Numbered from the stretch's first letter, positions 12,190-63,550 are shown. The stretch: 64,000 nt of DNA from Nymphaea colorata (GCF_008831285.2 NC_045138.2:2170001-2234000), one strand, 5' to 3'. The notes: a model not told the origin generated them from the sequence alone. Made by a program: numbers and translations.

Positions 12190-12600
12190 GCATTGATACC
12201 CGATTCTTGATCTGATCCAGTTTGGCATCTATATCAAATAGGCCCAATCGAATAGCTAGGTCGATCCAATATATAGGATCCCAATACCATATATACAAGA
12301 ACAGGGTCCCTTTGCGAGCAAATACTCATGGCACGGTGCTGATGTTGTCCATGTAACATAGAAAATATCTTGCTGGCTGGAACCGGACTGAAGGATAGAC
12401 TGCTGCTCCAACCCAACCACGACAACTTTTATTTAGAGTTTAATGAAAATTAAGAAAAAAATAGTAGCAGAAGTCAGGATAGGTGTGAACTTAATGAAAT
12501 ATCATTTATTTCCTTAAAAAAAAACTTATACATGGAAGTTAATCCAAAAAATAAACTCTCCAAATAAGATAAATAGCAGCACTGAGGTATCAGAAGCTTG
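12190..12600 (+). promoter_or_regulatory. Copy A of the DEFL upstream/promoter module
   Basis: Aligns with the reverse complement of ~38150-38540. Contains the shared TATA-like AAGATAAATAGCAGCAC (GATAAATA at 12568-12575). Confidence 0.75.
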
Positions 12601-12659
12601 ACAGTGATCAAATAGAATGATGCCTCTCTTTCCCTCTCTATTGGTGGTTAAACAAAAAA

Positions 12660-15600
12660 AAAAACTTCTGTTGATCGGACATTTTATCTAGTGCTATGCT
12701 GCATTTGGGTGAGTGGGAAATAACCACCATCCAGCATAAAGGCAAAGGTCCCATTGAACTTTTTGTTTCCTTATGTAATATTGTCTACATTCGATACCTC
12801 AGAGTGCAAACGCCCCAGTTGTGCTTCAACTTACACATCTGTGACTTCCTTTTTGTAGCAAAAGAGATTGACGCTCTTGACGCTCAAAATGAAGACTGTT
12901 TGAATGCCAGCCCTCCTTTCACCCCAAGCAGTGGCGTTAATCCCCTCGGGAACACATCCAGTTGCCTTCATTTTCCTACTTTTTCAACGAGTGAAAAAAA
13001 TTCCTTTAATGTTTGCATTGCATGATACACTATGAAATGGCTTTGCTTGTCTTTTTGCATGAAATCCTTTCGCTTACTAAATACCACAAGATTTTACAAT
13101 GCACGCAACCATCATTTCCTTTGTTCTACATGATCTACAATGTCAAATATTTACCTTCTGTGAATCAATCAAGAAATTAAGTCGACGCCCCAAGAACAAG
13201 AAAGAAATGGGTCGAATTGAATAAGGAGTAAGCAGCGTAAATTCTTTCCTGGTTTGGAGGTAGAGCTGGAGTGCTATTTGAATCACCCTCTTAGCACTGA
13301 AGAAAACCCTTTTACTCTCATTTCCCCAATATCACCCCCTCTTCCCCTCACATTGGTGGCTTCTTGAGCGCCATTTCGTAGCGACCTTCGCCCTCTCCCT
13401 CCCATCCAGTAGCAGAGCCACATTATGGCTGTTGCAGGTGCTTGCCCACACCAGCCCACAAAATTTTCTTTATTTAATGTCTTAGGGAAGCAAGAGTAAA
13501 AGGCCTTTCTTCAGTACTGAGGAGGTGATTCAAATAGCACCGCCGCTCCACCTCCCAAACCAGAAAAATATTTTCCGTGCTTACTAATTCACCTGGGATG
13601 TTTCTTTCTTATCATTTGTCAAGGTTCTTGGGGTCTCGTTGTTGTTGGTTTCTTCATTGATTCTTAAAAGACACTGGACATTGATGATGACGAGCAAAGG
13701 AAATGGCAGTTGTATGCGATGTAAAATTCTACTGCATATAGAAAGATAAAGGTTTTCACGAAAAAGATGGACCAAGTCGTTTTCATAGTATATCATGCAA
13801 TGCAAACATGAGATCTTCTAGGTTTGAGAAACATAGATTTAAGATGAGACCCTTCTTCCTCTGATCTTAAATCCGACCTTTTATCAATCTAAAAAAAAAA
13901 AGTAAAATAATGATCTTAAGTGTAAATCTTAGGTCTGACCTAAGATCCTTAGTTTGATGAACCATGGACTTTACCATAGATCTTTTCCCACATCAGCAAA
14001 AGATCTATGGTAAACAAGAGTAAAAGGGATTTCAGCCCACAAAATTTACTTTATTTGCATGTCGATATTTCATTAATGTCATAGGGAAACATTAGTAAAA
14101 CGGTTTTCTTCAGTACTGAGAAGGTGATTCAAATAGTACCACCGCTTCACCTCCCAAACCGGGAAAGTATTTTCCCTGCCTACTCATTCACCTGGGCTGT
14201 TTCTTTCTTATCATTCATAAAGATTCTTGTCTCGAGTCAACGCCAAGTGTACTTTGGAATAAGTCGCGGGTCCCTGTCGATGCCATGTCATCGGTGGGTA
14301 CCGGTCTCTTTGAGGCTCCTGGTCAGCAACAGCTGGCAGGGGGTCCAGCGTATGTGGAGGTGAGGTGTATCCACGTGGAACCCATTCAGGACCCCTTGGT
14401 CACGTGACTGCCTTCGCTTCTGGTGGCGGGAAGCGGGGGGCAGCCACCGTTCCGTTTGGCTGAGGGCTCCCTATCCCCCATTTTCCATTTTTATTTTTTA
14501 CCTTTTTAATAATTTATTTTTTTTGCTCTATAAATACTAGTTAGTTAATAATTTTTCATGTTTGAGAGGGAAGTACCACTTTTTTTTTCTATGGTGGCGA
14601 AGCAAACTTTTTTCAGAAAAGGCTGAGAGGAAAAACCAAGGGTGATGGAATCGGGGACCCATCGCACTCGGTTTCTTTCTCGCGACCTTTATGGAAAAAA
14701 ATTTTCGTTGCCACTAGAGAAAAGAAGAGTGGTACTTCCCTTTCAAACATGAAAAATTATTAACTAACCCATATTTATAGAGCCAAAAAAATAAATTATT
14801 AAAAAAGAAAAATAAAAAAGGAAAATGGGGGATAGGGAGCCCTCAGCAAAATGGAATGGTGGCTGCCCCCCGTTTCCCGCCACCAGAAGCGAAGGCGGTC
14901 ACGTGACCAAGGGGTCGCGAATGGGTTCGATGTGGATACACCTCACCTCTGCATACGCTGGGCCCCCTGCCAGCTGTTGCTGACCAGGAGGCTCAAAGAG
15001 AACGGGTACCCATCGATGACATGGCATCGACGAAGACCCGCAACTTTTTCCAGAGTACACGTGGCGTCGAGTTGGCCTCCACCTGTAAACTCAAATAGAA
15101 ATTTTCTTTCGCAAGGTACTAAATACTTACTTGAAGCAGTGACTCGAGTCTCGTGGGCTGACCCATATAACTGGACTGAAGTCCATCATAATCCAAGCAC
15201 TTAAAATAAAGTTTTAGAATGCGGTCCATGGAGCATGTATCTCTGCCCCTAAATGTATGATGAGATTCTTCCAACAGCGTGAAGATCACAGTTTCCAGCT
15301 TGTCAAGGAGCTCTGTAACCAGTCTGCTGAGCAAATCAAGCAGTGAAATAGGCCCAAATTTATAAACATCTATCGCATGATCCTGCTTTGTGAAGGCGTT
15401 GGTGTAAATAGCAGGTGTTCACATCCCCCAATTTCAACCAGCAGAAATCAGTGGTGGGGCAAGTTTTTTCATCCGTGGGCACTTGCATTGGTGACACAAT
15501 TTTGGCATGGGCATTGCATAAAATTTTACAGTATAACAATGTGAAGTTAATACAATATAATGAATTTTTTGATGGACTGGCATGGGCAGTGGCCCCCAGC

Positions 15601-16345
15601 CAACAAGTAACTCTGCTTCTGGCAGAAATGAGACTCTTGCTTTCAACATCTCTCAGATGTGAGAGAGAGAGAGAGAGATATATTCATCTTTCTAGCAGTG
15701 AAAAATTAGAAAATGTGGAGAAATGTGATTATCTACCCAAAAAATAGGTCCGGAGAATACTATTATAAGTTGAGCTTCTACCTAGGGTTCTTCTTCTTTA
15801 GAAACGCACATACCTGCCCAAAAATAGCAGTTGTATGCATTGTAAAATTCGGCAGTGTATGAACAGGGAAAGTTTTTCAAGAAAAAGACAAACCAAATTG
15901 GTTTCCATAGTGTATAATTCAAACAGACACTAGAGACATTTTCCTTGACTCATTGTAAAAGTAGGAAATTGAAGACAACTGAATGACAATGTAGTACCAG
16001 ATACCCTCTCCGATTTTTTTTTTTTTTTTGAAAAAATTGACATGTAAATTTAAAAAAAAAAATTATTTGTCCTACATAGAAATTATGAAAAATTATATTC
16101 GGTCCTTGTCAAAAATTTGAAACTATAATTCAGCCTCTCTCATAAAAAAAACTTGGCTTCATCCCTGGCAGTGGTTGAACTATAGTTTCAAAATTTTAAA
16201 AGGGCTGAATTATATATATTTTTTAATTTGTTTATATTTGTACATGTTTTATTTTTTAAAAATATGAAAAGAAGCGATGGACATTGCCAGCCCCCCTTTG
16301 GCTCTGCCCCTAATGGCAAAGGAAATGTCCGAACAAGAGACCGCT
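12660..16345 (+). ncRNA. Putative long hairpin RNA unit A
   Basis: 13010-13318 pairs with 13494-13808. Outer 12955-13130 also pairs with 15820-15990, and 12665-12690 with 16318-16342. The right arm is duplicated at 14015-14232. No credible ORF. Transcription is inferred. Confidence 0.5.
14236..15071. mobile_element. Foldback element (MITE-like), almost entirely palindromic
   Basis: 14236-14645 is the reverse complement of ~14660-15071, e.g. CGCCAAGTGTACT / AGTACACGTGGCG and GAGGGCTCCCTATCCCCCATTTTCC / GGAAAATGGGGGATAGGGAGCCCTC. No clean TSD seen. Confidence 0.7.
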
Positions 16346-17974: not shown

Positions 17975-18978
17975 GTTCATATTCAACTCACCAACATGCA
18001 TGTTTTTTCTTTTTATTCAATTAGCCTTGATAAACTATTGTGTATCGGTCTTCCAAGCATATGATTAGATTTCCTAATTATAGTTCTGCTTTTTTTTTCT
18101 TTTTAGTATTTCATTATTGTTCAAGGTTGTGATGTGAACTTTCCCATGGTGTTGTGGTCATAAGCGTTAATGATTGGGCCTCACCCACAATTTAAAAAAA
18201 AAAAATAGCAAGCAAGGTAAGCAGGTGTCCATGTTATAAAGTGAAAACTTGTATCCTTGAAACCAAAGTCTCGATCATGTTCAACTTAACGATCTTAGTT
18301 CCAAGCCTCTGCCCAAGTGGATGGAGCTCCTGTGCCCAATGACTGTGTGTTAGTTGGCCCTTGCAAAGAATGTTGTTTCATGTATTTTCTGCATGATATA
18401 ACCTTCTAATGTGTTTGTTGCCATGTAAGTTGTCATGTTCCATATGAATTTCTCTAGAAAAAAAAATATTCGCTTCAAATATTTTTGTTGTTCGAACTTA
18501 GTAAGGGCACTGGTCCAAACTATATATCAAAGACTGGGTTTAAGTGTGCACTAGGATTTCCTAGTATATTTAGATTTATTTTAAGTGCACTTTCATTTCG
18601 TTCTTATCTAGTGTTTTGAGAGCATCAAGAAATCCTTTGTTCCATCTTAAAAGAGAGTTTTGATTACTGCAAGTCACCAGCTAAAAGTTAAGTAAGCAAG
18701 AGGAGTATTTCATCGTACCACCCAACAAGATGACATAAGTTCCTGAAATGGCTCTAGCTCTGCCTCTCCCTGTTGGACCACTGAGAAAGAATTGTTGGGT
18801 TGGGTCGATTACCGCTGACAACCAATGAGGGACGGTCACAATAAAGTTTTCAAGTCGTTTTACTCCCTTGCTTCTTTACAAGGCAGTGGCGTAGCCACAT
18901 TGTGACTGGTGTGGGTGACTGGTGTGGGTAGTTGTCCACATCAGTCTCTTAAAAGTTCTTTATTTTTAAATGAGAATC

Positions 18979-20395
18979 CTAAACCACATGGGTACAGATA
19001 CAGTTTGGGTACAGGTACGATGATACGGTTATGAACACGACAATTTAAAAAATGTGGGTATGGGAATACGGTAGGTTATATTTATATATATATGCAAAAT
19101 AATATTAAAAAAACAAAATGAAAGCAATATTTTAATAAACAGGTGATATGAATCAAAACATTATATGTTAATGAACAATAACTCTAAGGATAGAATGAAA
19201 AGTAAGGTGAAAAAAATTAAATCAAAATAAAATTAAGTTGTTTGGATCTAAAAGGTACCCAAGCGTGTTTAAGTTCTCACTTTGGGTACATGACAAGGCA
19301 ACATGGGTACGTTGACCTTATTGAAATACTCATGTGACTTTGGCTAAATGTAGGAGATAGGACGAGTCAAATAGACGTAACCAAAAGCAAAACTTAAATA
19401 CTACATGTGGTAGGCTTCAATTTTATTTTCTTAATGTGAGCACTTTCTTGTTAGCAGTCGCCTTGAAAACAATTATAAAGTTGTTTTATCAAAATTTTGC
19501 AAAATGTTTAATTCCAGTTGCCAATGTTGTTTAAATGAGCCTGAATATTATTGGTCGTAATGCGATCGTATTGCTGCCAAATTTGATTAATTTATCGATG
19601 CAAAGAGTGCCAATGTGATATACACAAATTATTTTATATATTTACTATTGTTTTTAATTTTTAATATGTTTTATTTATTAAAATATAATGGTATTATTTT
19701 TGCTGTAATCGAGTTAATTGAATGATCACTAAATCTATTCAAATAGGCGAACCTTCTCTCACAATATGTTCTCTTGTAGCCAAGTCAAAACCTACTAGTT
19801 GATGATTGTGTTTGACAAGCGAATTATTTATTATTCGTTTTCATGGAAATGTTTCCCTGAGTTTGATTTTACAATGCATGGAATTGCCATTTCCTTTGTT
19901 AATTTGCAGTGTTTCTGATTGCATTATACACTATGAATGCCACTGGTTTCTCTTTTTCATGAAAATGTTTCCCTAATTTTCATCTTCCGAGAATTTCACG
20001 ATGCATACGATTGCCATTTCCTTTGCTTCTGGAGTATGTATTTGCATGATACACTAGAAAACCACTTGGTTTGTCTTTCTCATGAAAATGTTTCCCTAAT
20101 GTTCTTATATTGGGAGTTTTACAATTCATATAATTGTCATTTCTTTGCTCCTCATGGTGCTAATCAATGTCCAATATGTGCATGTTGGGAATCAACCAAT
20201 GAATTACAAACTGTGGGTTATCATTGTGCAAATTTGTAAGAGCAGTGAAAGAGAATTAGGAAACATTTTGACGACCTCCACAGAAAATAGGGGCAGGCCA
20301 CGATAGTGGATGGTGCGTCTATGCTTCCCCTCTCTAAAGACCAGTTAGGAAATTAAGATAAAGAGTTATGTACAAGTTGTGCATGATGCATTGCT
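18979..20395 (-). repeat. Inverted partial copy (3' half) of the hairpin unit, including a shared MITE at 18979-19343
   Basis: Reverse complement of ~52430-54340 and ~55890-57724. The ORF-track pseudo-ORF 19937-20239 matches 52588-52827 and 55952-56134. Confidence 0.85.
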
Positions 20396-20570
20396 GGGAT
20401 GGGACCAGAAAATTTTTCATGAGGGAACTAAATTAAAGTTTTTAAATTTTGACTAGGTTCAAAATATCATTTTTCAAAATTTTTATATTGAACAAGTGAA
20501 ATTTTTAAAATTTACATGTAATTTAAAATTTTTTTTTTTGAGGTGGGGCCAGGGCCCATGCAGGCTAGCA
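20396..20570. mobile_element. ~200-bp hAT-type MITE (CAGGGGCGGAGCC-type family)
   Basis: Same family as 48616-48811. Other copies lie at ~44970-45085, 48256-48445 and 52290-52430. Confidence 0.7.
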
Positions 20571-20699
20571 GTGAGGCCATCATCATCTCTTCTAAAATTA
20601 TCAAAAAACATACAAGCGCATAAAACTGAAAGGCTAATCACTCCCTTCACTGCTAGCAGTGAGGCCATCATCATCTACTGGGGATTCTTGAGGCCGTCA

Positions 20700-20975
20700 T
20701 ATCTTTCTTTTTCTTCATCTTTCTTTTTCTTCATCTTTTCCTCTTTTCCCTCTTCATAAATTCGATCACTTTCTCTAGACAGGGAGTCCTGTTGTCTTTC
20801 TCATGGCTGGTCCTTGGCATCAATCTCTCCGCAACATCTGCTCGGGTTACCTCTACCCTCCCATTCTCAAACAACTTCTTTACTTCATCAAACAAAATGT
20901 GGTCCTCCAAATTCAAGAAGTTCTTGGCAAGAACAGTGAACCCCTCATAGGTGCAGTAAGACATCTCAATATGCC
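20700..20975 (-). pseudogene. C-terminal fragment of a plant BCS1/ASD-like AAA-ATPase gene
   Basis: HIEMSYCTYEGFTVLAKNFLNLEDHILFDEVKKLFENGRVEVTRADVAERLMP matches the family's post-AAA tail. No upstream AAA core is present. Confidence 0.85.
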
Positions 20976-20999
20976 TTAGCCATGATTATGGGACTTCAG

Positions 21000-22250
21000 A
21001 AAGGGGTCTTCTTGAAGATTGATCATTCCCAGCATATGATTAGAGGTCCTAATTGTAGTTCTTTTTTTCTTTAGTTTTTATTCATTATTAGCCAAGGATG
21101 TATTGTGAGTTTTTCCTTGGTGTTGCCCTCATAAGCATTGATCCTTGGGGCTTACCCACGATAAAAAGAAAAAGAAAAAAAAAAAGAAGAAAAAATGGCG
21201 AGCTAGCTAGGTAAGCAGGTGCCCATGTTATCTTGTGAAAATATGAATCCTTGATACCAAACTTTCATTTGCATTCAACTTAACGATCTTGGGTCCAAAC
21301 CTCTGCCCAAGGGGATGCAGTTCCTGTGCACAATATTTGTTAGTAGGCCCTCCCAATGAATGGTGTTTCATGTATTTTCTCGTTTTATGCATGATATAAC
21401 CTGCAAATGTGTTTGTTTTTATCTAAATTACCATGTTCCAAATGAATTCCTCTTAAAAAAAAATGGGCTTCAAATAATTTTTTTTTTGTTGTTATTAGAA
21501 CTTAGTAGGGGCATTGGTTTGATCTATAATATATCGAAGGTTGGGTTTCCATGTGCACTAGGATCGCCTTACTATTTAGGTCTATTTTAAGTGGTACTTT
21601 CGTCCAAGAAATCCTCTTACTTTATTTTCCATCTAAAAAGAGGATTTGAGTTCTGCAACAGCAATGAATAAAAGTTGGATGCAAATGAGGAGTATTTCAT
21701 GTTATTACCCAACAACAGGGCGGAAACCTCCCACCCTTCTTCCTGTCTCCCAAGGGCAACAAGCACACTTCGGTGCCTTGGGGTAACAATTCTGCTATAC
21801 TTCAAATTGCATATCAATATGCCCTTCTCCCCACCTTTGTATAAGTTGATGCTCCGCTATAAGTTACTGAGTGTTTTTTTTTTATTTGAAGAGCTTGGTT
21901 ATAAGTCAAACAGATAGTAATATTCCTCATATCTTAATAAGGTCATGTCCCAATTTTCCTTAAGAACATCTATGGCTGACTAGTTATAACAAAATTACAA
22001 ATTTGTCATACTCTCGTAATTAATTAACAATGTCAAAGATAGGTTTTTGAAAAGAATCGGCCAATTAAGTGATTCAAATCCTTTTTTCTAAAACATAAAA
22101 AAAATAACTTACAATAAAAACTATTAAATAATCCAAACATGATATGTGGGAGTCAGCCTCTCAATCAAATACATTTGCCACTAACTCGGCTCAAACTGGC
22201 CCGATTCAGGTGGTGGGCTCAAATAACATTCCTTCCCTGATGCATAATCT
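21000..22250 (-). repeat. Inverted copy of the inter-unit spacer and distal promoter module; 18040-18730 is a second copy of the spacer part
   Basis: 21195-21935 is the reverse complement of 47020-47775. 21935-22250 matches the reverse complement of 50180-50320 and 60230-60310, and matches 38570-38740 directly. Confidence 0.8.
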
Positions 22251-22905: not shown

Positions 22906-22907
22906 AA

Positions 22908-25070: not shown

Positions 25071-25107
<37 letters not shown>

Positions 25108-26688
25108 GTTCATGGTTCTTGCGGGTAAAAGATTTCTCACCCTTGACTTCTGCTTCTAGAAAAGGTACTCTTCTGTCAAAGTCTGTTCAATTTCCTAACG
25201 ATGAATCCACTCGCTTGACCATCCACCAAGCATTCCCCTAATCTTAGTTTGTACCTGTAATAGTTTAGCCACTATTATATCTATAGCGGTTTAAATGTCA
25301 TTTTTTTCACCGCTATAGATCTCCATGTAGTGACTATAATCATCACTACAAGCTGTTGCGACGTGTATAATGGTGTTTTAGGGGCCCTTGGTCACTGGTA
25401 CAGCCGTGTGATGTATTCAACTTCAGATAAGATTGATTTGTATATATACAAATCTATAATTGTTGTAATTGCTGTCTCTCTCCACCTCCCCCTTGTAAAA
25501 TGTCAATTATTGTCAAACTCCGAGGACTTTTGCCATTAGTAGCTCTTGTCAATTCCCAAGAGCCTTGGCTATCATGAACAGCGGTCTTGCCCATGGGGAA
25601 TGACAAGAGATCGATTTGCATGCATATCTTCGTGGACACAAAGATACATTTTAGAAATTATAAAGGTATATGTACATTTTAATCTTTTGATATTTTTATA
25701 ACAGAGGCATTTTAATCATTACAGTTTCCGACGGTCGCACATAACCAGCTTCCCAGTTATAAATTCAATTTTTTTAAGAGAATTGCCTACTGCCATGCCC
25801 TTTGGGAATGGCGGTGGACATTGCCAACGGCCCAAGGCACGCCCTTGGGAGTTGAAATGTCAGTTGCTTTTCTGACCATTAGATATTCTGGCTAATGAAC
25901 ATTATGTATAAGATTTAAAATTTTTAAGGGGAACTAACATAAAAAAAAAAAGAAAAAGAAAAGAAAATTTGTTGAAAAATATCAATAATAAAAATAGAGA
26001 TTTTTTTGGGGTCTGTGTGGGTAACTGTCCACACATAACTCACACATGAGTTTCAAAAACATTCTTGTACTGATTGTCTCCCCCGCTTTTATGTTTTTTT
26101 TAGTTCATACTGTTGGAGCAATTGAAGTTACAGCTGAAGTTGTGAGTCGTCGCCTGCACAGTAAGTTCACTAGCGACTCCAATGTTCAAGTGAAAAAGTA
26201 GCGACTATCCCTGTAGAAAACAACGGAGCAAGAGGAAGAGGAAGAAAGCAAGAAGAGCAAGTCAGATTTAGGGGTTTCCTTCTAAGGGGCTCCTCACGAA
26301 TCCTCTTCTCAAGAGAGAGTTTTTAAAACATTAAGCATTGCTGGGTATAAGTAGCCAGCCCCTTACGTTTTCCCCAAATCCCAACAGCGGTTAGCGTGAG
26401 ATTTTTTAGGAAAGAATTGAGATAAATATGAACTTTATCTCGTTGCAGAATTTTTGAGCTAATTTCGTAACTGTAAGGCAGTTACGAGATATCCGGATAG
26501 GGCTCAATGGCCACTATCCAACATCTCCCACTTCGCCATGAGACCACCAGTTTGCTTCCACTATATGTGGGTTTCCTTCATTTAACTAGTTACATGGTTT
26601 TCCATAATTGGTTTATCCATCGTAACCTAAACTTTATTCAAGGTTTACAGCGAGGTTTTCCATTCAATGGTTTTTCCTTCGCAACCTT

Positions 26689-36349: not shown

Positions 36350-36354
<5 letters not shown>

Positions 36355-40429: not shown

Positions 40430-40439
40430 TGTTCTGATT

Positions 40440-50140: not shown

Positions 50141-50159
50141 TTTTATTTAATTCAGATCA

Positions 50160-50775
50160 TTTATGTTTCAGAAAAAAAATTGAATCACTTAATTGGCCGT
50201 CTATGTTCAAAAACCCATTTTGATATTGTTAATTAATTTTGGGACCATGACAAAAATTTGTAATTTTGTTATAAAGAGCAGGCATAGGTATTCTTAGAAA
50301 GTTGGGGTATGACCTTATTGTGATCAGTGCCATGGGCGCCTTTAGAAGGCAGTGGCACCTGGTTCGTGATCTGATCCAATTCAGCCTCTATATTAAACTA
50401 GGTCCAATCAGATAACAGGATTGGACCAATATATAGGATCCAGTGCCATACTGATGGGATCCACACAAAAGAAGATATATTGCTGGCATGAGCTGGACTG
50501 GAGCATGGACTGCTACTCTGACCCAATGACGACAACCTTTACATTGAAATTAATAAAAATTAAGAAAAATATAGTAGCAGAAATCATGATAGGTGTGAAC
50601 TTAATTAAATATCATTTATTTTGTAAAAAACATAGCTCACACATGGAAGTAAGTAAATGAAATAATTTCTCCAAATAAGATAAATAGCAGCACTGTGGTA
50701 AAGAGAACCACAGTGAATTAGAAAGGTCTGCTGAGAAAAGAAAATAAGAAGATGATGGCGAAGAAAGTAAATGAC
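50160..50775 (+). promoter_or_regulatory. Copy D of the DEFL promoter, 5'UTR and first five codons (MAKKV)
   Basis: AAGATAAATAGCAGCAC at 50677. The UTR CCACAGTGAATTAGAAAGGTCTGCTGAGA matches DEFL CCACAGTCGATTGGAAAATCTGCTGAGA. ATGGCGAAGAAAGT at 50755. Confidence 0.85.
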
Positions 50776-53260
50776 TTTAGTGTCTGCATGCAATTGCATG
50801 GTATACTATGGCCACCACTTGGTATGTATTTTTATGAAAACTTTTCTTTTTATCAGCATAAATTTTCTGTGCTGCAAAAAGAAAACACCAATATGCAAGT
50901 TGAAGCACAATAGAAGCATCTGATTGAAACATCAAAAATAACACTAAACCCTGGAGGATGGGAGGAAAGAGAAAAGCTTCAGCCTTCACTCAACATTGGA
51001 AATTGCCTCCTGCTCACCCAAAAAACTTTCCCTTCCCATGTACTACAGAATTTGACATTGCATACAAATGCCATTTCTTTTGCTCTCCATCATCAATGTA
51101 CAATTGGTTTCTTTTGAGAATCTATCAAGAAATTAAAAGCTGCATGTAATCAATGTTCGTAGGCATTGCTAGAACCCCCAAGAACCTTTACCAATATGGA
51201 CCACGCGAAAAGGTGGAAGGCGATAGAGGTAGTCGGAATAGTAAAGGTTGCGTACACAGCTTACGTATGCCGTAAGAAGGGAGATGTTTTTATAATTAAA
51301 AAAAAAAACATGTCTTTTGTAGTCATGTCATTTTTTTTATTTCTATTTTTAGTACTTTTGCCATTAACCATAATGGCATATGAACTTTTGTTGTAGTGGA
51401 AGTAAGCTGTTGAAAAGAGGTGGTGGAACTTGATTCCTTGTTTCATGAGGCGGTGCCACCCTTGTAGTGGTAGATGGTGTTCTTGCACTCTAGTCTGGAG
51501 TAGTGCAGCCCAAGCTGTCTGGGGTTTGTATGTGAAGAGAGAGGCAGAGATCTTCTGGTTATTTACTGTCCAACAGGGGAAAAACTCCACTCATCTATCT
51601 TATAAAGACCTGAAATTCCTTTTATCATGGAGGGAGAAAGGGGGGAGGGAGTAAAATAGAAATCTCTTTGATGCCAATCTAATTGCTAGAAAGAGAAAAT
51701 TCTTCCCCTATCGTGCTTAGACATTTATTAAGCATCCAATAAGGAGGGAGGTGGTGGGCATGAGGTGAGATTTGGGTAATTACATAGCAGAGCATCTCAT
51801 AAGGGCCAAAAGATCAACTTCACAGTGTGATCAACGAAAGTAGATGCTATCCAATTACAACAACCAGCGTGCCCGCGGGTTGGATGTGGTAGGCATGGTG
51901 GCTGTTGTAATTGCATAGAATTTGCTTCCATTGTCTGCACTTTCAAGCTGTTCATTTAGTTCTTTTGAGTTGCTTCGCTGTGCAATTTACCAAATGTCAG
52001 CTCATGCCCACCACCTCCCTTCCTATTGATGGTTAATAAATGTCGAAGCAGGATAGGGGAAGAATTTTCTCTCTTTAGATAGAAGATCGGCAAGATAGAG
52101 TCTTCCCCCTTTCCTCTATGAGAATAGAAATTATAGTCTTTAATTTTTCGAACCGAGTAATATGTACAGGCCTATGCACATTTGCATTGTTTGCAAGTTT
52201 CAGTGCATGATAAGTACTCATAAAAGTGGGCTAGGAACCCAATGCAAGTGGGCCAAGGTTACAGTTGGCATGCCTTAAAAGGCTATGCACCAGTATTAAA
52301 AAAATACTTGTAAATTTTAAAAATTTCACTTGTTCTATATAAAATTTTTGAAAAATGATACTGCGAACCTAGTCAAAATTTAAAAACTTTAATTTGGTCC
52401 GCTCAAGAAAATTTTTTGGCTCCGCCCCTGGTATGCACCATGCATGACGGCTTGTAGATAACTCTTTATTTTAATTTACTAGCTCGTCTTCGGGGAGGGA
52501 AAGCATAGGCACACCATTCACAAGACTGGCCTAACTTTCTCTTCCATGGAGGTTGTCAAAATAATTTGTGGTTCTCTTTCACCGCTATTATAAATTGGCA
52601 TTATGATAGCCCACAATTTGTAATTCATTGGTAGATTCCCAACATGCACATATTAGACATTGATGAGGACCATGAGGAGGAAAGAAATGACAATCATATG
52701 AATTGTAAAACTCCCAATATATGAACTTTAGGGAAATGTTTTCATGAGAAAGACAAACCAAGTGGTTTTCATAGTGTATCATGCAAATGACAATGCTAGA
52801 AGCAAAGGAAATGAAAATTGCATGCATGGTAAAATTCTCAGTAGATCAAAATTAGAGAAACATTTTCTTGAAAACAAGAAACCATTTGTAGTGTATAATG
52901 CAATCAGAAACACTACAAATTCACAAAGGAAGTTTGCAATTCCATGCATTGTAAAATGAAACTCAGGGAAACTTTTCCATGAAAACGAGAAACCAAGTGT
53001 ATTTTCATAGTGCAGAATGCAAACAGAAACACTAGAAACAAAACAAATGAAAATTGTGTGCATTGTAAAATTCTCAATATATGAAAATTAGGAAAACATT
53101 TTCATAAAAATATTAAGACAAACCAAGTGGTTTTCATAGTGTATTATGCAAACACAAACACTACTGATATTTTCTTTGACTCGCGGTGAAAGTAAGAAAT
53201 TGAAGGCAACTGGATGCCAACCTAGCACCACTAGAGGAAATGTTTCAGAGCTTTCCAAGG
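50775..53260 (+). ncRNA. Putative long hairpin RNA unit D
   Basis: Inner hairpin 51600-52145 (apex ~51880). The 5' segment 50780-50850 pairs with repeated 3' modules in 52730-53165. Confidence 0.5.
52680..53165. repeat. Four degenerate ~120-bp tandem repeats in the 3' arm (also 56045-56525 and, inverted, 19835-20150)
   Basis: Recurring GAAA..TTTTCATGAAAA..AAACCAAGTG..TTTTCATAGTG..ATGCAAA..CTAGAA.CAAAGGAAATG..TGCATTGTAAAAT. Confidence 0.75.
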
Positions 53261-54448
53261 ACTCACATGTGGAGACATCTCTTTGTAGAAAGACACACCT
53301 TTTAAATGTCTCAAAAAGTAGCCAAAATAAGTTACTTGTGTCTCTTCATCAGTAATGTGCCATTATGCTGACACTAATATGGTTCATGTTACTGGGGACC
53401 TAAAAAAAAAAGTTGTTCAAAAAAATGTACCTTATATGCAAAAAAAAAAACATTCTCATCATTTTCTTTTGTTATTATTTTGAAAAGTAAACATACAGAT
53501 ATATGTAACTTGGTTTAAAATTATTTGGAAAACAAACAATAAATAATTCGCTTGTCAAACACAATCGTCAACCAGTAGGTTTCGTCTTGGCTACCTTGGC
53601 ACAAATTGCGAGAGAAGCTTTGTCTATTTGAATAGTTTTAGTGATCATTCAATTAACTTGTACAACAAAAATAATATCATTATTTTTTAATAAGTAAACC
53701 ATATTAAAAAATTAAAATCAATAATAAATGTATAAGATAAATTGTGTGTATCACGTTGGCACTCTTTGCATCGATTATTTATCAAATTTGGCAGCAACCC
53801 GATCTAATTAGGTCCAATAATATTCTGGTTCATTTAAACAGCATTGGCAGCTGGAATAAAACATTTTGCAAAATTTTGATAAAACAACTTCTTTATAATT
53901 GTTTTCAAGATTACTGCTAAGAAGAAAGTGTTCACATTGTGAAAAGGAATCTAAAGCCTACCTACCACATGTAGGATTTCCTAAGTCACATGGGTACTTC
54001 AGTAAGGCCCACATACCCATGTTGCCATACCACGTACTCAAAGTTGGAACTTGGACACATTTGAGAACCTTTTAAATCAAAACTGCTTAATTTTACTTTG
54101 ATTTAATTTATTTCACATTATTTTTTATTCTATTCTTAGAGTTATTGTTCATTTACATATAATGTTTTTATTTATATCACTTGTTTATTAGAATGTCGCT
54201 CTTATTTTGATTTTTTTTGTATTATTTTTCTTATAAACATAAATATATCATGTGTATCTCCGTACCCATATCTTTTAAAGTTACCATGTCCATATCTCCG
54301 TACCCGTATCCAAACAGGACTCGTACCCATGTGACTTAGCTTTTGGCCTGTTGGAACTGAACATAAACTGTATCTGCTCAGCTGCACCCATTATTTACAA
54401 AAGTTAATTAAATAATAACTAGAAATATATAAAATATTGTAAAAGAGA

Positions 54449-57400
54449 CAGTGAATTAGAAAGGTCCGCTGAGAGAAGAAAGTAAGAAGATGATGGCGAA
54501 GAAAGTGAATGACTTTAGTGTCTGCATGCAATTGCATGGTATACTATGGAAACCACTTGGTATGTATTTTTATGAAAACTTTTCTTTTTATCGGCACAAA
54601 TTTTCTGTGCTGCAAAAAGAAAACACTGATATGCAAGTTGAAGCATAGTAGAAGAATCACCTCGAAACATCAAAAATAGCACTAAACCCTGGAGGATAGG
54701 AGGAAAGATGAAAGCTTCAGCCTTCACTCAACATTTGAAATTGCCTCCTGCTCACCCAAAAACCATTCCCTTCCCATGCACTACAGAATTTTACATTGCA
54801 TACAAATGCCTTTTCTTTTGCTCTCCATCATCAATGTACAATTTGTTTCTTTTGAGAATCTATCAAGAAATTACAAGCTGCATGTAATCAATGTTCGCAG
54901 GCATTGCTAGAACCCCCGAGAACGTTTACCTATACAGACCACGCGAAAAGGTGGAAGGCGATAGAGGTAGTCGGAGTAGTAAAGGTTGCGTGCACAGCTT
55001 ACGAATGCCGTAAGAAGGGAGATGTTTTTATAATTAAAAAAAAAAGCATGTCTTTTGTAGTCATGTCACTTTTTTTTATTTATATTTTTAGTACTTTTGC
55101 CATTAACTATAATGGCATATGAACTTGTAGTGGAAGTAAGCTGTTGAAAAGAGGTGGTGGAACTTGATTCCTTGTTTCATGAGGCAGTGCCACCCTTGTA
55201 GTGGCAGATGGTGTTCTTGCACTCTAGTCTGTAGTAGTGCAGCCCATGCTGTCTGGGGTTTGTATGTGAAGAGAAAGGCAGAGATCTTCTGGTTATTTAC
55301 TGTCCAACAGAAGAAAAACTCCACTCATCCATCTTATAAAGACCTGAAATTTCTTCTATCATGGAGGGAGAAAAGGGGGGGGGGGGAGTAGCATAGAAAT
55401 CTCTTTGATGCCAATCTAATTGATAGAGAGAGAAAATTCTTCCCCTATCCTGCTTAGACATTTATTAACCATCCAATAAGTAGGGAGATGGTGGGCATGA
55501 GCTGAGATTTGGATAATTACAAAGCAGAGCATCTCATAAGGACCAAAAGATCAACTTCACAGTGCGATCAACGAAAGCAAATGCTTTCCAATTACAACAA
55601 CCACCATGCCCGCGGAAGGGATGTGGTGGGCATGGCTGTTGTAATTTGCATAGAATTTGTTTCCATTGTCTGCACTTTCAAGCTGTTCATTTAGTTCTTT
55701 TGAGTTGCTTCACTGTGCAATTAACCAAATGTCAGCTCATGCGCACCACCTCCCTCCCTATTGGATGCTTAATAAATGTCGAAGCAGGATAGGGGAAGAA
55801 TTTTCTCTCTTTAGATAGAAGATTGGCAAGACATAGTCTTTCCCCCTTCCTCTATGAGAAAAGAAATTATAGTCTTTAATTTTTCGAACCTGGCCTAACT
55901 TTCTCTTCCATGGAGGTTGTCAAAATATTTTGTGGTTCTCTTTCACCGCTATTATAAATTTGCTTTATGATAACCCACAGTTTGTAATTCATTGGTAGAT
56001 GCCCAACATGCACATATTGGACATTGATTAGGACCATGAGGAGCAAAGAAATGACAATCATATGAGTTGCAAAACTCCCAATATATGAACATTAGAGAAA
56101 TGTTTTCATGAGAGACAAACCAAGATGTTTTCATAGCGTATCATGCAAATAACAATGCTAGAAGCAAAGGAAATGGCGATTGCATGCAACATAAAATTCT
56201 CAGTAGATGAAAATTATGGAAACATTTTCATGTAAACAAGAAATCAAGTGGTTTTCGTAGTGTATAATGCAATCAGAAACACTACAAATTAACAAAGAAA
56301 ATGGACATTCCATGCATCGTAAAATGAAACTCAGGGAAACTTTTCCATGAAAACGAGAAACCTAGTGATTTTCATAGTGCACAACAGAAACACTAGAAAC
56401 AAAGGAAATGAAAATTGTGTGCATTGTCAAATCCTCAATATATGAAAATTAGGAACATATTTTCATAAAAATATTAAGACAAGCCAAGTGGTTTTCATAG
56501 TGTATTCTGCAAACACAAACACTACTGATATTTTCTTTGACTCACGGTAAAAGTAAGAAATTGAAGGCAACTGGATGCCAACGTAGCACCACTAGAGGAA
56601 ATGTCTCAGGGCATTCCAAGGACTCACATGTGGAGACATCTCTTTGTAGAAAGACACACCTTTTAAATGTCTCAAAAAGTAGCCAAAATCAAGTTACTTG
56701 TGTCTCTTCATCAGTAATGTGCCATTAGGCTGACACTAATATGGTTCATAGTATTGGGTGCCTAAAAAAAATGTTGTTCCAAAAAATATAACTTATATGC
56801 AAAAAAAAAACATCCTCTTTATTTTATTTTGTTATTATTTTGAAAAGTAAACATACAGATATATGTAACTTGGTTTAAAATTATTTGGAAAACAAACAAT
56901 AAATAATTCGCTTGTCAAACACAATCGTCCACCAGTAGGTTTGACTTGGCTAGCTTGGTACAGATTGTGAGAGAAGGTTCGTCTATTTGAATAGATTTAG
57001 TGATCATTCAATTAACTTGTACAACAAAAATAATATTATTATTTTCTAATAGACAAACCATATTAAAAATTAAAATCAATAATAAATATATAAGATAAAT
57101 TGTGTGTATCCCGTTGACGCTCTTTGCATCGATTATTTATCAAATTTGGCAGCAACCCGATCTAATTACGACCAATAATATTCAGGTTCATTTAAACAGC
57201 ATTGGCAGCTGAAATAAAACATTTGGCAAAATTTTGATCAAACAACTTCTTTATAATTGTTTTCAAGACTACTGCTAAGAAGAAAGTGTTCATATTGAGA
57301 AAATGAATCTAAAGCCTACCTACCACATGTAGGATTTACCTTTTGCTTTTGGTTGTCTATTCAGCCTACCTTGTCTCCTACTTTTGGCCTAAGTCACATG

Positions 57401-57830
57401 GGTACTTCAGTAAGCCCACGTACCCATGTTGCCGTACCATGTACCCAAAGTTGGAACTTGGACACATTTGAAAACCTTTTAAATCTAAACTGCTTAATTT
57501 TACTTTGATTTAATTTTTTTTCACATTATATTGTTCATTAACATATAATGTTTTTATTTACATCACCTGCTTACTAAAATGTTGCTTTTATTTTCATTTT
57601 TTTGTATCATTTTGCACATAAACATAAATATATCATGTGTATCCCCATACCCACATCTTTTAAAGTTATCATGTCCATATCTCCGTACCCATATCCAAAC
57701 AGGACTGGTACCCATGTGACTTAGCTTTTGGCCTGTTGGAACTGAAACTGTATCTGCTCAGCTGCACCCATTCTTTACAAAAGTTAATTAAATAACAACT
57801 AGAAATATATAAAAACATTGTACCATAAGA
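54449..57830 (+). ncRNA. Putative long hairpin RNA unit E, a recent tandem duplicate of unit D
   Basis: Colinear with 50711-54440. Begins inside the DEFL 5'UTR (ATG 54493, MAKKV). Inner hairpin at 55333-55880. Confidence 0.5.
57389..57724. mobile_element. hAT-type MITE; copies at the equivalent site at 53981-54339 and 18979-19343, related partial copy at ~36165-36520
   Basis: TIRs CTAAGTCACATGGGTAC / GTACCCATGTGACTTAG and 8-bp TSD CTTTTGGC (57381-57388, 57725-57732). Confidence 0.9.
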
Positions 57831-60224
57831 TTAAATGTAAAACAATCTCCTCAAGGGCATACTTGGAAATAAGAAGTTTGAAGTTCTAAATAATTTTTAA
57901 GTTGGCTGAAGCTTTGTTCAATATACTAAAGTTCAAATATTGCTTCTTGTGAAAATACGTTGTTCCCATTCAACCATAAATTTTCAAATTCAATTGTAAG
58001 AATCTTACTGTAACTCTACAACACATTTTCTTCAACAATCATATATGTCAAACTGAATTTAAACAAAAATCAATTAGGAAAATGAGATGAACACAACAGT
58101 TGACATATGCAAATGACCCACACTACATCCTCGAAAGAGATTGACTTACAATAATTGCCAGTGCTGCAACCCCAGTCATGCTGTTACTTGAAATGCAAAA
58201 GGCATATCGTGCAATTGAGAGGAAAAAGAAAGCAAAATAACATGGCAACATTCATGAGAATATAAATGCAGTCAGCACAAATCACAAGACAATATGTTTA
58301 GATACCCTATCGAAGACTGATATCATAGTCACAAAAAGTGCTTTTTTTCAAAAAAAAAACATGATAAATTAAATTACTGTTTAAAACTAAAAAAGCACAT
58401 TTTTTGAAAAAAACATGTTTTTTCACTTTTTTCATTTCCTTCATTTCTTTCATTTTTTAATTCCCAACAGTTGTTTTCTCATTTTCTATTTTTGATTTGT
58501 TGCAGATCTACCTATCTTTTGTTTTTTGCGTTATTAGTTTCTCACTTATTTTATTTTTTCTAATTTTTATTTTTTAAATTTTTAAAAAATTAAGTATTTT
58601 TATCATTTTTTTCAAGCTCATCATATTATACTCGAGAAAAACCTCGCTGTTTGGAACTCCAAAATGTTATATGTGACTATGATTGATATATACAATCTGT
58701 TGATTCTCTTGATCTTCAACACCAAGTCTCTGCAAAGTATACCTTCCAAAGTATAAGCAAGATAACAAAACAATCCTCATAACACCAAAAAAATGAAATA
58801 CATGAGAGAGAGAGAGAGAGATCCATCATTTTAAGAGTGAAAGATTAGAAAATGCAGAGAAGAATGCACATGTACGTACAAAAAAATTAATCCAAGGGAT
58901 ACAACTCTCTTAGACTTATATCTAGGTTTGTTCTTGTTAAAGAACGTCAACTTCATTTGATGCAAAATGGGGAATCCTTGCTCCGTGGGACAAAGAGCAC
59001 AAGTGGTTCTTGCAAAACAAGAAGCATTCTGGGTGCCAGAATCAGCTACTAATGATTTCAAATAACAAAACAAGCATTCAATTGGCAGTGCCTCAGAGTA
59101 TTTGAGTTTTATTGTTTTCCTTAAGCATTGCAATGTTTTATAAGGAAATTGAGGAGGGACATATAGCTATATATATATATATATATACACATGATATCAA
59201 CATACAAACTTATGGTGCATTCCTAAAGGCTTCTTTAGAAACTTTTTGTTTGTCACAGGTGGCTCTCTTAAAAACACTTGATATATCGGTGTGTGTTTCT
59301 AACATATTAAGAAATAAAATGTTAAGAGTTTCAAATAAGAGTAGACATTCAACTAGGTACCTGATGGGTATAAAGTTGATGGTCAGGCCAGACCTGATAA
59401 CTAAATGGGCCAGACTTGGGCTGCCGCCAAATGCTTTGAGCCAGCCTGAACCCGACTTTGTCGAGCCTTGGGCCATGTCAGCCAGGCCTGATGCCAGGCC
59501 TTACCCCCATCCCTCCTAGGTACTAGGCATGCTGTCAGTGCATCGGGGTGATGCTCCACTATATTTCAACTTACATATCAAGCCCGCCCAACCCTTACCC
59601 TTCCTTCCTTCCTTTCTTTTGGCAGTATAGGGAGTGTTGATCCTACGAATAGAAGCTAGCTGCCTACTGGCCCCCACCTAGTCTGTTGTGCCAATCCCTT
59701 AAGGATTCATGTAATACTAATTCATTTTTTTTCCAAAATAATGCACATTTTTTAGAATCATTAATTTGTGTTAACCTTGACAATATGAAGAAGATATTTC
59801 AATCTCACCAGTACTTTTGTTGGAACAATAAAAAAAATATTTCACTGTAATTGTCTGCTTCAATTGTGGTATATATCACATGCAGGTTGGAAGTCAAGTA
59901 AATAGTTTGAATTCAGCAGGAATGCATTCATTTTCTTTACTAAAGGTCCCATACCCAAATCCTAACATGGATTTATTGGATTTGGATGTCTGTGGCAATT
60001 GGATATGTATTGCATTTGGCAAGAAAAAATGTTGATCTGATGTATCTTTTTATCAATTCCCACTAATTGATTTCGGATTTAAAATCCAATTATGTGAAAT
60101 TGGATTGTATCTGAATCATTGACATCCTACCTCAGACCGCCAAAACTGGCACATGAAGGTTTCCATGGTAAGTACAATCCATTTAGAGGAAAATAGAGTA
60201 GTTTATGCATTAGGGATGGATTCT

Positions 60225-60900
60225 TTGGAAATCAACGTTATTTGAACCTGCCGGAATCGGGCCGATTTGAGCCGAATCAGTGGCAAATTTATTTGTTTGA
60301 TTGAATGACTGATCCTCTCTTATTATGTTTTGAATATTTTAATATATTTTTGGATTAAATCTCAATCTTTTATTAAAAAAAGATTTGAGGAACTTAATTG
60401 GCCGATTCTATTCAAGGCACTGGTACCCGATCCATGATCTGATCCAATTCAGCCTCTATCTTAAAATAGGTCCATTCAGATAATTGGGTACCAATATATA
60501 GGATCCAAATACCATATATATAAGAACACAGTCCATTTGTGAGCAAATATTCACACCGCGATGCGGATGGGGCCCATATACTGGATCACAGACTACTGCA
60601 GCGACCCAATCATGACATCCTTTATTTTGAAATTTAATGAAAGATAAGAAAAAATATAGCAGCAGAAACCAAGATATGTGTGAATTTAATTAAACATCAT
60701 TTATTTCCTAAAAAACATAGCTTATACATGGAAGTAAATAGAAAAAATAATTTCTCCAAATAGGATAAATAGCAGCACTGAGGTATCGAAAACCACAGTG
60801 AATTGGAAAGGTCTGATGAGAAAGAAATGAAGTAGAAGACGATGCCGAGGAAGCTGGTCGCCCTTTAAGTGTACGATTTTAAGCAATTAAGTTCTTCTAA
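60225..60900 (+). pseudogene. Copy F of the DEFL promoter, 5'UTR and crippled exon 1
   Basis: GATAAATAGCAGCAC at 60764. ATG at 60842 reads MPRKLVAL*, with the stop at the same codon as copy C. 60418-60570 aligns with the reverse complement of 38400-38545. Confidence 0.85.
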
Positions 60901-61154
60901 TAAGTCTTTCATAGAGCAGGTTTGAATATGAATAACAAAAGCCCGTAGCCAACCCAACCTTTTTGTCACCATCATCTTTCATTCAGTTGCTACAAGGCGG
61001 GAATCTGACCACCTCTTTTTTAGAAAAAAGCTGAAACACAATCTGTGGTTAGCTAGACAGCTGATTCACACCCTACAAACTAAGCAAATAGCTTCCTGCA
61101 CCCTCTGCCATTGCATATATATATATATATATATATATGTCTCCATTCTATTCA

Positions 61155-63550
61155 TTTCGTCTTGTTCAGACATTTCCTCTGGTAATACGTGGGCAATGTA
61201 TTTAAACAAAAAAAGCTTAGTCCTTTTTGTGTTGCATGATATACTATCAAAACCACTTGGTATGCCTTTTTTATGAAATATTTTTTCTTTATTGGTGTCA
61301 ACTCTTTATGCTGTAAAAAAGCCGATACTAGCGTATAAGTTAAAACATGATAAGAGTATCACCTTGAGGTACCAAAAGTAGCTGGACCCTAGGAGCATGG
61401 GGGCAGACATTAGCCTTCACTTTGGTGATGGGAATAGCCTCTTGTTCTCCCCACAGGTGCCTTTTGCAAATAAATCAAGAAACTAAATACCGCATGTAAT
61501 CAATATTGTTAGTCGGCATTGCTACCAATATTAATAAGAAAGTAGAACTTCATAGCTTGTTTTATGAGGTGGTTCCACCCTTGTAGTGCCTGACGGCAGT
61601 TTCTAGTCTGGAGCAGCGCAGCCCATACTGACTAGTCTGTGTATGTTGAGAGAGGTGGAGGTCTTCTGGCTATTTACTGTCCAGCGGGAGCAAACTCTTC
61701 ACTTATCCATCTACTGGGTAGGAAACTACCATAATTTCTTCCATCGTAGAGAAAGAGGGAGGAGGAGAGAGAAACAAACACATCTTTGTCTTGTCAATCT
61801 ACCATCTAAAGTGAGCAAATTCTTCACTTATCAGAGCAACCGAAAGACCAGTTTGATAATGCGGTCTACAGAAGCAGATGCTATCAGATTACAACAACCA
61901 CCAACATGGTGGTTGTTCTAATTTCATAAGATCTGCTTCTCTTGGCCACACTGTAGAGCTGGTCTTTTGGTTCTTTTGAGTTGTTCCTCTATGAAATTAA
62001 CCAAACGTCAGTCCATGCCCGCCCACTCCTTCCTGTTGGTAGGCGAAGGAAAAATTTTCTCTCTAGATGATAGTAGATTGGCAAGACAGGGGCTCTCCTA
62101 TATAGTAGAAGAAAATTATGCCTCTTAATTTCCTATGTAGTAGGTAGATAAGTGAAGAGTTTTCTCCGGCTGGGCAGTAGTAAAAGAGGCACAAGACCTC
62201 TGCCCCTCTCTCTCTGTCACTACATACAGAGGGGTGAAACCAGAAATTTCCTCCTGTAGTATGTGGGCAATTGTCTGCCTTCATTTTTCTTATCTTCATA
62301 ATGAGTCAGAGAAAATGACTTCATTGCTTGGATTGCTTGATAGACTATGAAAACTACTTGGTATGTTTTTCTATTAAAACTTTTTATTTTAGTGAAGTCA
62401 ATTATCTGTTATGTTAAGAAACATTGATATACAAGTTAAAGCATAACATAACTATTACTTCGAGAACGAGAAGCAGCTAGACCCTGGGGGATGGCTGAAG
62501 ACTTCAGCCTTTACTAAGGCGGACCGAACAGCTTCTTGCTCATCCAATGGGTGCCCTTTGAGAATAAACCAATGTTAGTCAGCATTGCTAGAACCCCAAA
62601 AAACCTCTAGCAATAATAAGAAACAAATGGGCCTAAACAAAACAGTGGAAGGTGATGGAGGTAGTCGGAGTGAGATGCCGCAAAAAGGTGGCAGGACTTC
62701 ATCGCTTGTTTCATGTAGTGCCTGACGGTGCTCACGCTCTAGTCTAGAGCAGCACTCCCCATGCTGACTGGGGTGTGTATATGTTCAGGGAGGTGAAGGT
62801 CTTCTGCGTATTTACTATGCACCGTATGGGATCCATTCATTTCACTTATCCATCTGTTGGGTAGGAGAAATCATGGCTTTTAATTGCCTAGCTGGTACAT
62901 AGATCAGTGAAGACTTTTCTTCCATTGGATAGTAAATAGCCACGAGACTTCTGCATCTTTCTCTATCACTAGATACCAGCATGGGCCGCACTACCTCCAG
63001 AATAGAGGGCGATGACACCACCAGAGCGGTGCCGCCTCATGAAACATGCAGTGAAGTCCCACCATCTTTTTGCAGCTGCTCACTATGACTGCCTCCATCA
63101 ACTCTATCAAGGCAAAAATTTCAAGCTTATATAGGCCCTTGAGAAGGGGAATCATAGGCACACCATCCACAAGCCTGGCCTGCCTTTCCGTTCCATAGAG
63201 GCTGTCAAAATGTTTTCTTGATTTTCTTTCACCATTGTTACAAGTTTTCATTGTGATAACACACAATTTTTAATTTCTCGATTGATTCCCAAGAGGCAAA
63301 CATTAGACATTGTTGGGGATCATGAAATGCAAAGGAAATGGGAATTGTATGCATTGTAAAATTCTCCTTACATGAAAATTAGGGAAACATTTTCATGAAA
63401 AAGACAAACCAAGTGGTTTTCATATTGTTATCATGCAAACACAAACATTACTAGAGATATTTTTCTTGACTCATTGTACTGAATGTAGGAAAGCGAAGGC
63501 AAATGGACACCAACATAGCACCAGAGGAAATGTCCGAACAAGAGAGGGCT
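61155..63550 (+). ncRNA. Putative long hairpin RNA unit F: outer stem with two inner hairpins, 61637-62229 and 62651-63102
   Basis: TCTTGTTCAGACATTTCCTCTGGT (61160) pairs with ACCAGAGGAAATGTCCGAACAAGA (63520). The inner hairpins are paralogous to 44385-44965 and 45275-45750. Confidence 0.55.

Follow-up and report, generated by a model that had tools for sequence, protein, structure and literature searches.

Why should the promoter and first codons of a gene for a small secreted peptide recur, several times over and on the opposite strand, in front of DNA that folds back on itself? The question is raised by a 64,000-nucleotide stretch of the Nymphaea colorata genome (GCF_008831285.2, NC_045138.2:2170001-2234000; the window), which carries a gene for a defensin-like (DEFL) peptide and, as self-comparison of the window revealed, a set of similar units spread over 12.2-63.9 kb, here lettered A to F (Table 1). 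An earlier, sequence-only reading took these for an amplified family of hairpin RNA genes that had taken over the DEFL promoter. The explanation favored here, on which our confidence is evenly balanced, is that a chimera between the DEFL promoter and first exon and a fold-back of the 5' end of a gene like ROLLING AND ERECT LEAF 2 (REL2-like) was duplicated in tandem long ago, and that the resulting units likely serve, or once served, as hairpin RNA genes silencing the REL2-like gene.

The promoter copies are the plainest part of the evidence. The TATA-like word GATAAATA of the DEFL gene, which lies on the minus strand, is found again on the plus strand in A, C, D and F. The surrounding copies of the DEFL promoter (at 12442, 40627, 50552 and 60636) are 70-76% identical to the original (E 1e-18 to 1e-30), GATAAATAG is kept in all four, and in each unit the promoter points into the repeat on the same strand. 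The recurrence of the upstream region proposed earlier is thereby borne out. The same holds for the start of exon 1 and for the loss of the peptide in every copy: there is a stop at codon 9 in C and F, D and E are fused after MAKKV to give chimeric frames of 52 and 51 codons respectively, and A has no exon 1. Exon 2 is absent from the copies, as had been claimed; below E 0.7, tblastn recovers the DEFL gene alone and no second copy. The idea that a copy of the promoter heads every unit stands for A, C, D and F and fails for E, which has the 5' untranslated region (5'UTR) and exon-1 start with neither promoter nor TATA word. A sixth member, the minus-strand remnant B (22230-18979), had been missed. 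The chimeric frame of D and E (50755-50910 and 54493-54645) consists of five DEFL codons and part of the adjoining arm; it is probably a chance survival at 93% identity.

DEFL genes are frequently expressed in reproductive tissue. The donor in the window has the layout usual for such peptides, with two exons, a hydrophobic leader and a cysteine-rich mature part. It had been called intact, and this is likely rather than certain, since the gene needs a GC-AG intron and its peptide ends in CHRYC where the Victoria cruziana homologue has CHCYC, one conserved cysteine being replaced by arginine. That homologue, P0006, is 72% identical to DEFL exon 2 (E 6e-18) and is its sole relative among 1.84 billion representatives; it belongs to a cluster of nine Victoria cruziana members and matches the Pfam family Defensin_like (PF10868) at E 3.5e-4, under the curated cut-off. 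Exon 2 of the window's own gene does not match PF10868, and a word-based search with it returned zero candidates. The nine Victoria proteins, P0006-P0014, are near-identical and carry close accession numbers, which suggests that they form a tandem array. A match between the downstream flank of the DEFL gene and the unit flanks is in opposite orientation and was not taken as homology.

Behind each promoter copy the sequence-only reading had placed a unit free of open reading frames, with a shared outer stem and one or more inner hairpins. There are indeed no long open reading frames, but the stems contain gene-derived sequence, the decayed start of a REL2-like gene. The outer stem is formed by arms a and a' of about 250 nt, which bound the units and within the window are found nowhere outside them; a' is tandemly repeated in B, D and E. 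In unit A a module y, which is not REL2-like, replaces the REL2-like insert. Unit C stands head-to-head with the DEFL gene, and E is a tandem copy of D at 88-93% identity. The inner hairpins are of two ages, the old ones being shared between units with arm identities of 67-78% and the young ones unique with 85-91%. In computed folding, seven inner hairpins of 457-801 nt are far more stable than dinucleotide shuffles (z -12 to -28; eight shuffles per hairpin), and in each of them 20-139 of the 21-nt windows have 19 or more bases paired. Units D and E retain a well-paired stretch of 60-90 nt, which has been deleted from the 5' arm of C and F. The best stretch in E, with 56/60 paired, has a permutation p of 0.012, that in D a p of 0.07, and the five other hairpins are not significant, these values being uncorrected across the seven.

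When the 5' arms are aligned with the reversed 3' arms, those of C, D, E and F form a single module family, and its source can be named. Among 233 stop-free segments of at least 38 amino acids from five units, three matched Pfam DUF630 (profile positions 19-45 or 22-45; E 1.3e-5, 8.5e-4 and 0.0044), all in stem arms and under the curated cut-off, and families other than DUF630 matched solely at E >0.01. A fourth arm matches DUF630 at E 2.3e-4 if it is read through with X. A profile of the arm translations found one match among 1245 candidates, the Nymphaea colorata protein 'ROLLING AND ERECT LEAF 2-like', which has DUF630 and DUF632 (E 2e-10) and clusters with Victoria proteins. With tblastn, residues 1-47 of this protein fall on six arms: four of the matches have E 4e-6 to 4e-9, and the other two are weak (E 0.07 and 0.36); its later parts gave no useful E-value anywhere in the units. 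Alignment by codon compatibility recovered all eight arm copies, with scores of 105-182 against shuffle maxima of 70-83. These eight copies, in C, D, E and F, carry the first 30-47 REL2-like codons, six in antisense and two in sense.

The core hairpin is thus a head-to-head inverted duplicate of the REL2-like 5' end, centered a few hundred bases upstream of the ATG. Only in hairpin 2 of C and F does the coding part find a partner; in D, E and hairpin 1 the paired sequence lies upstream of the ATG, and the antisense codons remain single-stranded. Because this upstream sequence is continuous with the codons, we infer that it represents the REL2-like 5'UTR or promoter. As oriented, a plus-strand transcript would hold antisense REL2-like sequence in its 5' arm and sense in its 3' arm. 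Each of the four arms of hairpin 2 in C and F keeps a fully codon-compatible 21-nt window, an upper bound, as degenerate sites pass easily; the best 21-nt windows are compatible with the REL2-like codons at 19-21 of 21 positions, scored against the codons of a relative only. No protein-coding source was found for unit A or the young fold-backs, and 36 read-through frames from the outer arms, y, the young arms and unit D matched no Pfam family. Metagenome contigs gave no matches to an arm motif, and no REL2-like relative was among 41 pattern matches.

With roughly the even confidence given above, the following route is proposed. RNA polymerase II (Pol II) would initiate downstream of GATAAATA in units A, C, D and F, in whichever cells use the DEFL promoter, and unit E would be transcribed only by read-through from D. 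The RNA would fold into the predicted stems, and Dicer-like enzymes would cut mixed 21-24-nt RNAs from the best-paired stretches, as in endogenous inverted repeats and proto-microRNAs. Guides from the 5' arm could then bind the mRNA of the REL2-like gene, a relative of XP_031483272.1, over its 5'UTR and first 47 codons, or bring methylation to the DNA upstream of that gene. From unit A and the young fold-backs, different sequence would enter this pathway. The arms of C, D, E and F derive from a REL2-like gene, which supports the hairpin-RNA reading and points to a likely target. Members of the DUF630/DUF632 family have been linked to leaf rolling in rice (PMC4967057) and to stomatal patterning (PMC7733971).

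The earlier statement that no case of this architecture had been described was too strong. In soybean, GmIRCHS, the candidate I allele, consists of the promoter and part of exon 1 of GmJ1, a DnaJ-like gene, fused to an inverted repeat of pseudoCHS3, and read-through yields double-stranded RNA against the CHS family (PMC3406792). The plan is the same, one gene's promoter and part of its exon 1 followed by another gene's inverted repeat. As described there, GmIRCHS is a single locus whose tail-to-tail repeat is perfect over 1087 bp, and double-stranded RNA and a phenotype were demonstrated for it (PMC3406792). The units in Nymphaea differ in having a DEFL promoter, a head-to-head arrangement over the 5' end, arms only 67-78% alike, five or six copies and varied inserts. 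The locus is built like GmIRCHS and may be a working silencer; it is set apart by its DEFL promoter, its amplification in a cluster, its age, its varying cargo and the target predicted for it. Antirrhinum SULF and Mimulus YUP are similar as lineage-specific small-RNA loci derived from incomplete or inverted duplication of a protein-coding gene; they are single loci with mapped phenotypes, the target of YUP is not its source gene, and the portion of the source that is available mentions neither a borrowed promoter nor a tandem family (PMC12371187). Endogenous inverted-repeat loci for small interfering RNA (siRNA) and young microRNA genes share the long imperfect Pol II fold-backs, processed by DCL2/3/4 to mixed 21-24-nt RNAs (PMC10827316); here this is predicted. 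No publication on the present locus was found in the open text of PubMed Central and bioRxiv; the supplements of 10.1101/2020.04.25.061721 and 10.64898/2026.08.14.744852, two preprints with small-RNA data from Nymphaea, may list it. Public sets for Nymphaea colorata cover leaf and ovule (PRJNA1465687) as well as vegetative and inflorescence samples.

A different relation between hairpins and a peptide gene is known at the Brassicaceae S-locus, where SCR/SP11 is defensin-like. Proto-microRNA-like hairpins lie there near a small cysteine-rich peptide gene, as they do here, and these precursors are described as repressing that gene (PMC13128112). In the window the DEFL gene only donates its promoter: no 21-mer from 11 stem regions has fewer than four mismatches to the DEFL gene or its promoter, and targeting of the S-locus kind, which had been put forward as an analogy, is not supported. 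There are 15 21-mers with four mismatches, against five for one shuffled target, and most are A/T-rich.

The relative ages of the parts can be read from their divergence. Sister copies are 93% (D-E) and 82-89% (C-F) alike, compared with about 68-75% for the two arms of one hairpin, so the fold-back is older than those duplications. The arms show no third-position excess and have therefore evolved as non-coding DNA. Copies of the unit share long flanks on both sides, having spread by segmental duplication, and each has lost different parts. The two young fold-backs, in A and C, were added later. Mutator elements leave 9-11-bp target duplications. The element in the loop of the young hairpin in C (42147-43007) is self-complementary over 42167-43010 and flanked by direct repeats of 11 bp that differ at one position, although its left end fails to match the right end over the first 20 bases; it is likely a Mutator-type miniature transposon. 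A young arm of unit C (43181-43620) has a GC-rich inner end, an 81-codon frame on the minus strand (43181-43423) and, on the plus strand, a hydrophobic stretch. It may have come from the 5' end of a further gene, which would then be a second target. A search with the 81-amino-acid frame found no match among 291 candidates at E 10 or better.

What, then, if the units are no more than a dead relic? A repair or copying accident would have made the fold-back in a DEFL pseudogene, tandem segmental duplication would have carried it along, and it would now be decaying, having perhaps silenced the REL2-like gene long ago. We regard this as a possible though doubtful account. A series of observations counts against continued silencing, and some of them speak for the relic: the missing covariation and G-U bias, the equal decay within D and E, and the deleted copies B and E. 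Covariation between paralogues, looked for on the suggestion of the sequence-only reading, is absent: in three paralogue pairs there is one compensatory column compared with three control columns among 693, both arms have changed at 9 columns where 7.8 are expected, and recent pair breaks comprise 34 G-U and 28 A-C (p 0.26), without G-U bias. Between D and E, divergence is equal in stem and flanks. The old arms are only about 67-78% alike, and the plus strand folds better in just four of the seven hairpins, with no strand preference in folding energy. In six arms no more than 80-89% of the informative sites agree with the relative's REL2-like codons, and divergence from REL2-like has been no slower in the paired arms than in the unpaired arms of D and E (p 0.12-0.52). 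An apparent faster decay of the hairpin-1 antisense arms was an artefact, the sequence being deleted after about codon 30. Unit E has lost its promoter and B its promoter core and hairpin. The lack of third-position excess noted above is also to be expected of a relic. Elsewhere in the window, at 4286-10272, an inverted pair of 6 kb that is unrelated to the units has diverged to a similar degree and indicates that old inverted repeats persist here.

Other observations favor the hairpin-gene explanation over the relic. The TATA-like word is present in all four promoter copies, the promoter core has few indels, the fold-back is kept in five units after 15-30% divergence, and two new fold-backs lie inside the predicted transcripts. 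The covariation test itself, with 74 changes per arm, has little power. At deeper splits, compensatory columns outnumber controls by 3 to 0 (p 0.125) and 1 to 0, a hint that is not significant, and a tree holding the 5' arms together is not rejected (p-AU 0.185). When C is compared with F, most stem windows agree at 85-90% and arm-a windows at 69-83%, a difference that D and E do not show. The promoter core is modestly better conserved than the arms, with 96/135 columns invariant among A, C, D and F against 88/155 in arm a' (p 0.014); without unit C the excess for substitutions is gone (109/137 vs 128/173, p 0.28), and the core does not differ from the distal promoter (p 0.36). Observed/expected CpG is 0.18-0.43 in the six REL2-derived stems, 0.48 in the window and 0.49-0.62 in three of the four promoters (small counts), which would fit long methylation of the stems and not of the promoters; promoter D, at 0.22, is as poor as the stems. 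Taken together, the anatomy, the tandem amplification and the gene-derived arms of the hairpin-RNA family on a borrowed DEFL promoter hold up, and the covariation expected of it does not.

A transposon origin is a less probable alternative, and one that we consider quite unlikely. It would make a/a' the terminal inverted repeats of an ancient Pack-MULE or fold-back element with a captured piece of the REL2-like gene, which landed in a DEFL intron and gives rise only to Pol-IV-type 24-nt RNAs, possibly as an ovule siren locus. Several features speak for it: arms of about 250 nt bound the units and are tandemly repeated in B, D and E, which recalls tomato elements whose long terminal inverted arms occur in tandem and which have captured pieces of genes (PMC3310237); the same arms enclose different inserts, y in A and REL2-like in C-F; the young core in C has its 11-bp target duplication; and 218 siren loci, enriched in DNA transposons, are given for Nymphaea colorata in a preprint (bioRxiv 10.64898/2026.08.14.744852). 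The Pack-MULEs described there are dispersed and have target duplications (PMC3310237), but the units here are local and share long flanks, as segmental duplicates would, and arm a was not found outside them within 64 kb. No target duplication coincides with the matching a/a' ends in A, C and F, though age could have erased one. The sequence-only reading had named a dispersed transposon with terminal inverted repeats and target duplications as the finding that would overturn it; of this, the window shows only the duplication at the young core of C. Such an origin is in any case compatible with the hairpin-silencing function proposed here.

It is very improbable that the units are precursors of reproductive phased siRNAs or proto-microRNAs with targets other than REL2-like or none, the REL2-like origin being incidental as CYP450 is for YUP, which derives from one gene and silences another (PMC12371187). 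In favor of it, asparagus and lily 24-nt phased loci are likewise long non-coding fold-backs (90% inverted repeats in asparagus) without miR2275 sites, every unit has arm a whatever its insert, and D and E have the well-paired 60-90-nt stretch. Against it, that stretch is gone from the 5' arm in C and F. The lily and asparagus loci are defined by phasing and meiotic-anther expression, with no borrowed promoter described in the available text (PMC6120631). The best penalties for miR2275/miR2118 sites in the units, at least 8 for three asparagus miRNAs, are no better than those of shuffles, asparagus sequences only having been used. A stretch of unit D that by eye resembles miR482/2118 was set aside, no 22-mer of the window having fewer than five mismatches to these miRNAs. 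None of 19 Rfam matches reached the gathering score, the best being MIR8562 with 60 of 211 bits, and no tRNA or tmRNA gene was found in the window.

Table 1. Features of the DEFL gene and of units A to F (positions counted from the first letter of the window)
Feature	Position	Strand	Details
DEFL gene, promoter donor	37283-38089	-	exon 1 38089-38035, GC-AG intron, exon 2 37464-37283; 78 amino acids, 10 Cys
DEFL 5'UTR and upstream region, template copied by units	38090-38978	-	GATAAATA at 38168
Unit A promoter copy	12180-12595	+	GATAAATA 12568; no exon 1
Unit A old hairpin	12941-13812	+	arm a 12941-13195 and y 13190-13332 pair with y' 13474-13631 and a' 13626-13812
Unit A second y'	14071-14230		
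Unit A young fold-back	14237-15070	.	arm identity 87%; unique in window
Unit A outer arm a'	15820-16013	+	
Unit B, deleted remnant	18979-22230	-	distal upstream piece, repeated a' arm, downstream flank; without promoter core or hairpin
Unit C promoter copy	39570-40890	+	insertion splits 39678 / 40427; GATAAATA 40752, ATG 40812, codon-9 stop
Unit C truncated extra arm a and sequence upstream of REL2-like start	41117-41416	+	
Unit C young 2.5-kb fold-back	41427-43897	.	outer arms 41427-42123 and 43354-43897, 85-91% alike
Fold-back element in loop of unit C young hairpin	42147-43007	.	flanked by 11-bp direct repeat, one mismatch
Unit C hairpin 1	43916-44973	+	arm a; antisense REL2-like codons ~1-30 (~44280-44371), unpaired; stem 44378-44973, upstream of REL2-like ATG
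Unit C hairpin 2	45268-45758	+	antisense REL2-like codons 45403-45269 paired with sense codons 1-47 (45629-45758)
Unit C outer arm a'	46080-46336	+	
Unit D promoter copy	50140-50770	+	more upstream pieces 47964-48885; GATAAATA 50679, ATG 50755, arm a joined after five codons
Unit D body	50780-53248	+	arm a; unpaired antisense REL2-like codons ~1-41 (~51512-51390); stem 51603-52142; a' tandem repeats 52602-53248
Unit E, promoterless tandem copy of D	54448-57822	+	begins in 5'UTR; ATG 54493; antisense REL2-like codons ~55247-55127; a' repeats 55965-56609
Unit E stem	55340-55885		32-bp unbroken helix
Unit F promoter copy	59834-60912	+	GATAAATA 60764, ATG 60842, codon-9 stop
Unit F hairpin 1	61159-62228	+	arm a; antisense REL2-like codons ~1-30 (~61626-61538); stem 61636-62228
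Unit F hairpin 2	62643-63107	+	antisense REL2-like codons 62762-62643 paired with sense codons 1-45 (62981-63104)
Unit F outer arm a'	63251-63544	+	predicted partner: partial arm a 62272-62370

The DNA around the units is rich in other repeats. A copia-type retrotransposon occupies 26109-35582 on the minus strand, with Pfam gag, integrase and Pol matches, terminal repeats 92% alike and a 5-bp target duplication. Within it, adjoining a terminal repeat, are about six tandem copies of a 557-bp unit (31905-35246) that are 99% alike, an array that is much younger than the insertion or else an assembly artefact. The second large inverted arrangement, at 4286-10272, has three nested arm pairs, 67-74% alike, and no DEFL promoter; by eye it looks like a pair of diverged long terminal repeats, oppositely oriented, with a Ty3-type capsid remnant (1151-1516) next to them. 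Just upstream of unit A a decayed frame at 10740-12060 (minus strand) was judged by eye to be LINE-like (long interspersed nuclear element), with no Pfam match. A broken accD-like fragment (49040-49340; Pfam Carboxyl_trans, E 7e-4), likely plastid DNA, is inserted upstream of unit D. A repeat of 600-800 bp is present in three copies that are 74-80% alike (18051-18728, 21026-21934 and 47019-47807), one in remnant B and one downstream of unit C.

If the units are silent, they are an ordinary decayed duplication. If they are transcribed, they are a natural set of hairpin genes that have decayed to different degrees and whose source gene can be named, and they belong to an early-diverging lineage of flowering plants whose small-RNA loci have been little described. 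The inverted-duplication model holds that a hairpin yielding siRNA can become a microRNA gene. Were the units transcribed, this route could be tested on paralogues within one cluster. The hairpin-gene explanation, if true, predicts small-RNA control of a DUF630/DUF632 gene. A bolder extension, which we think unlikely, is that the DEFL promoter has become, in the water-lily family, a silencing cassette that can be reused and is specific to a cell type. Multiplied five or six times, retained through 15-30% divergence and supplied with varied fold-back cargo, it would knock down a REL2-like cell-patterning gene and others in one reproductive cell type. If the explanation favored here is true, it would show how a new silencing locus can become tissue-specific, by taking over the promoter of a gene for a small secreted peptide.

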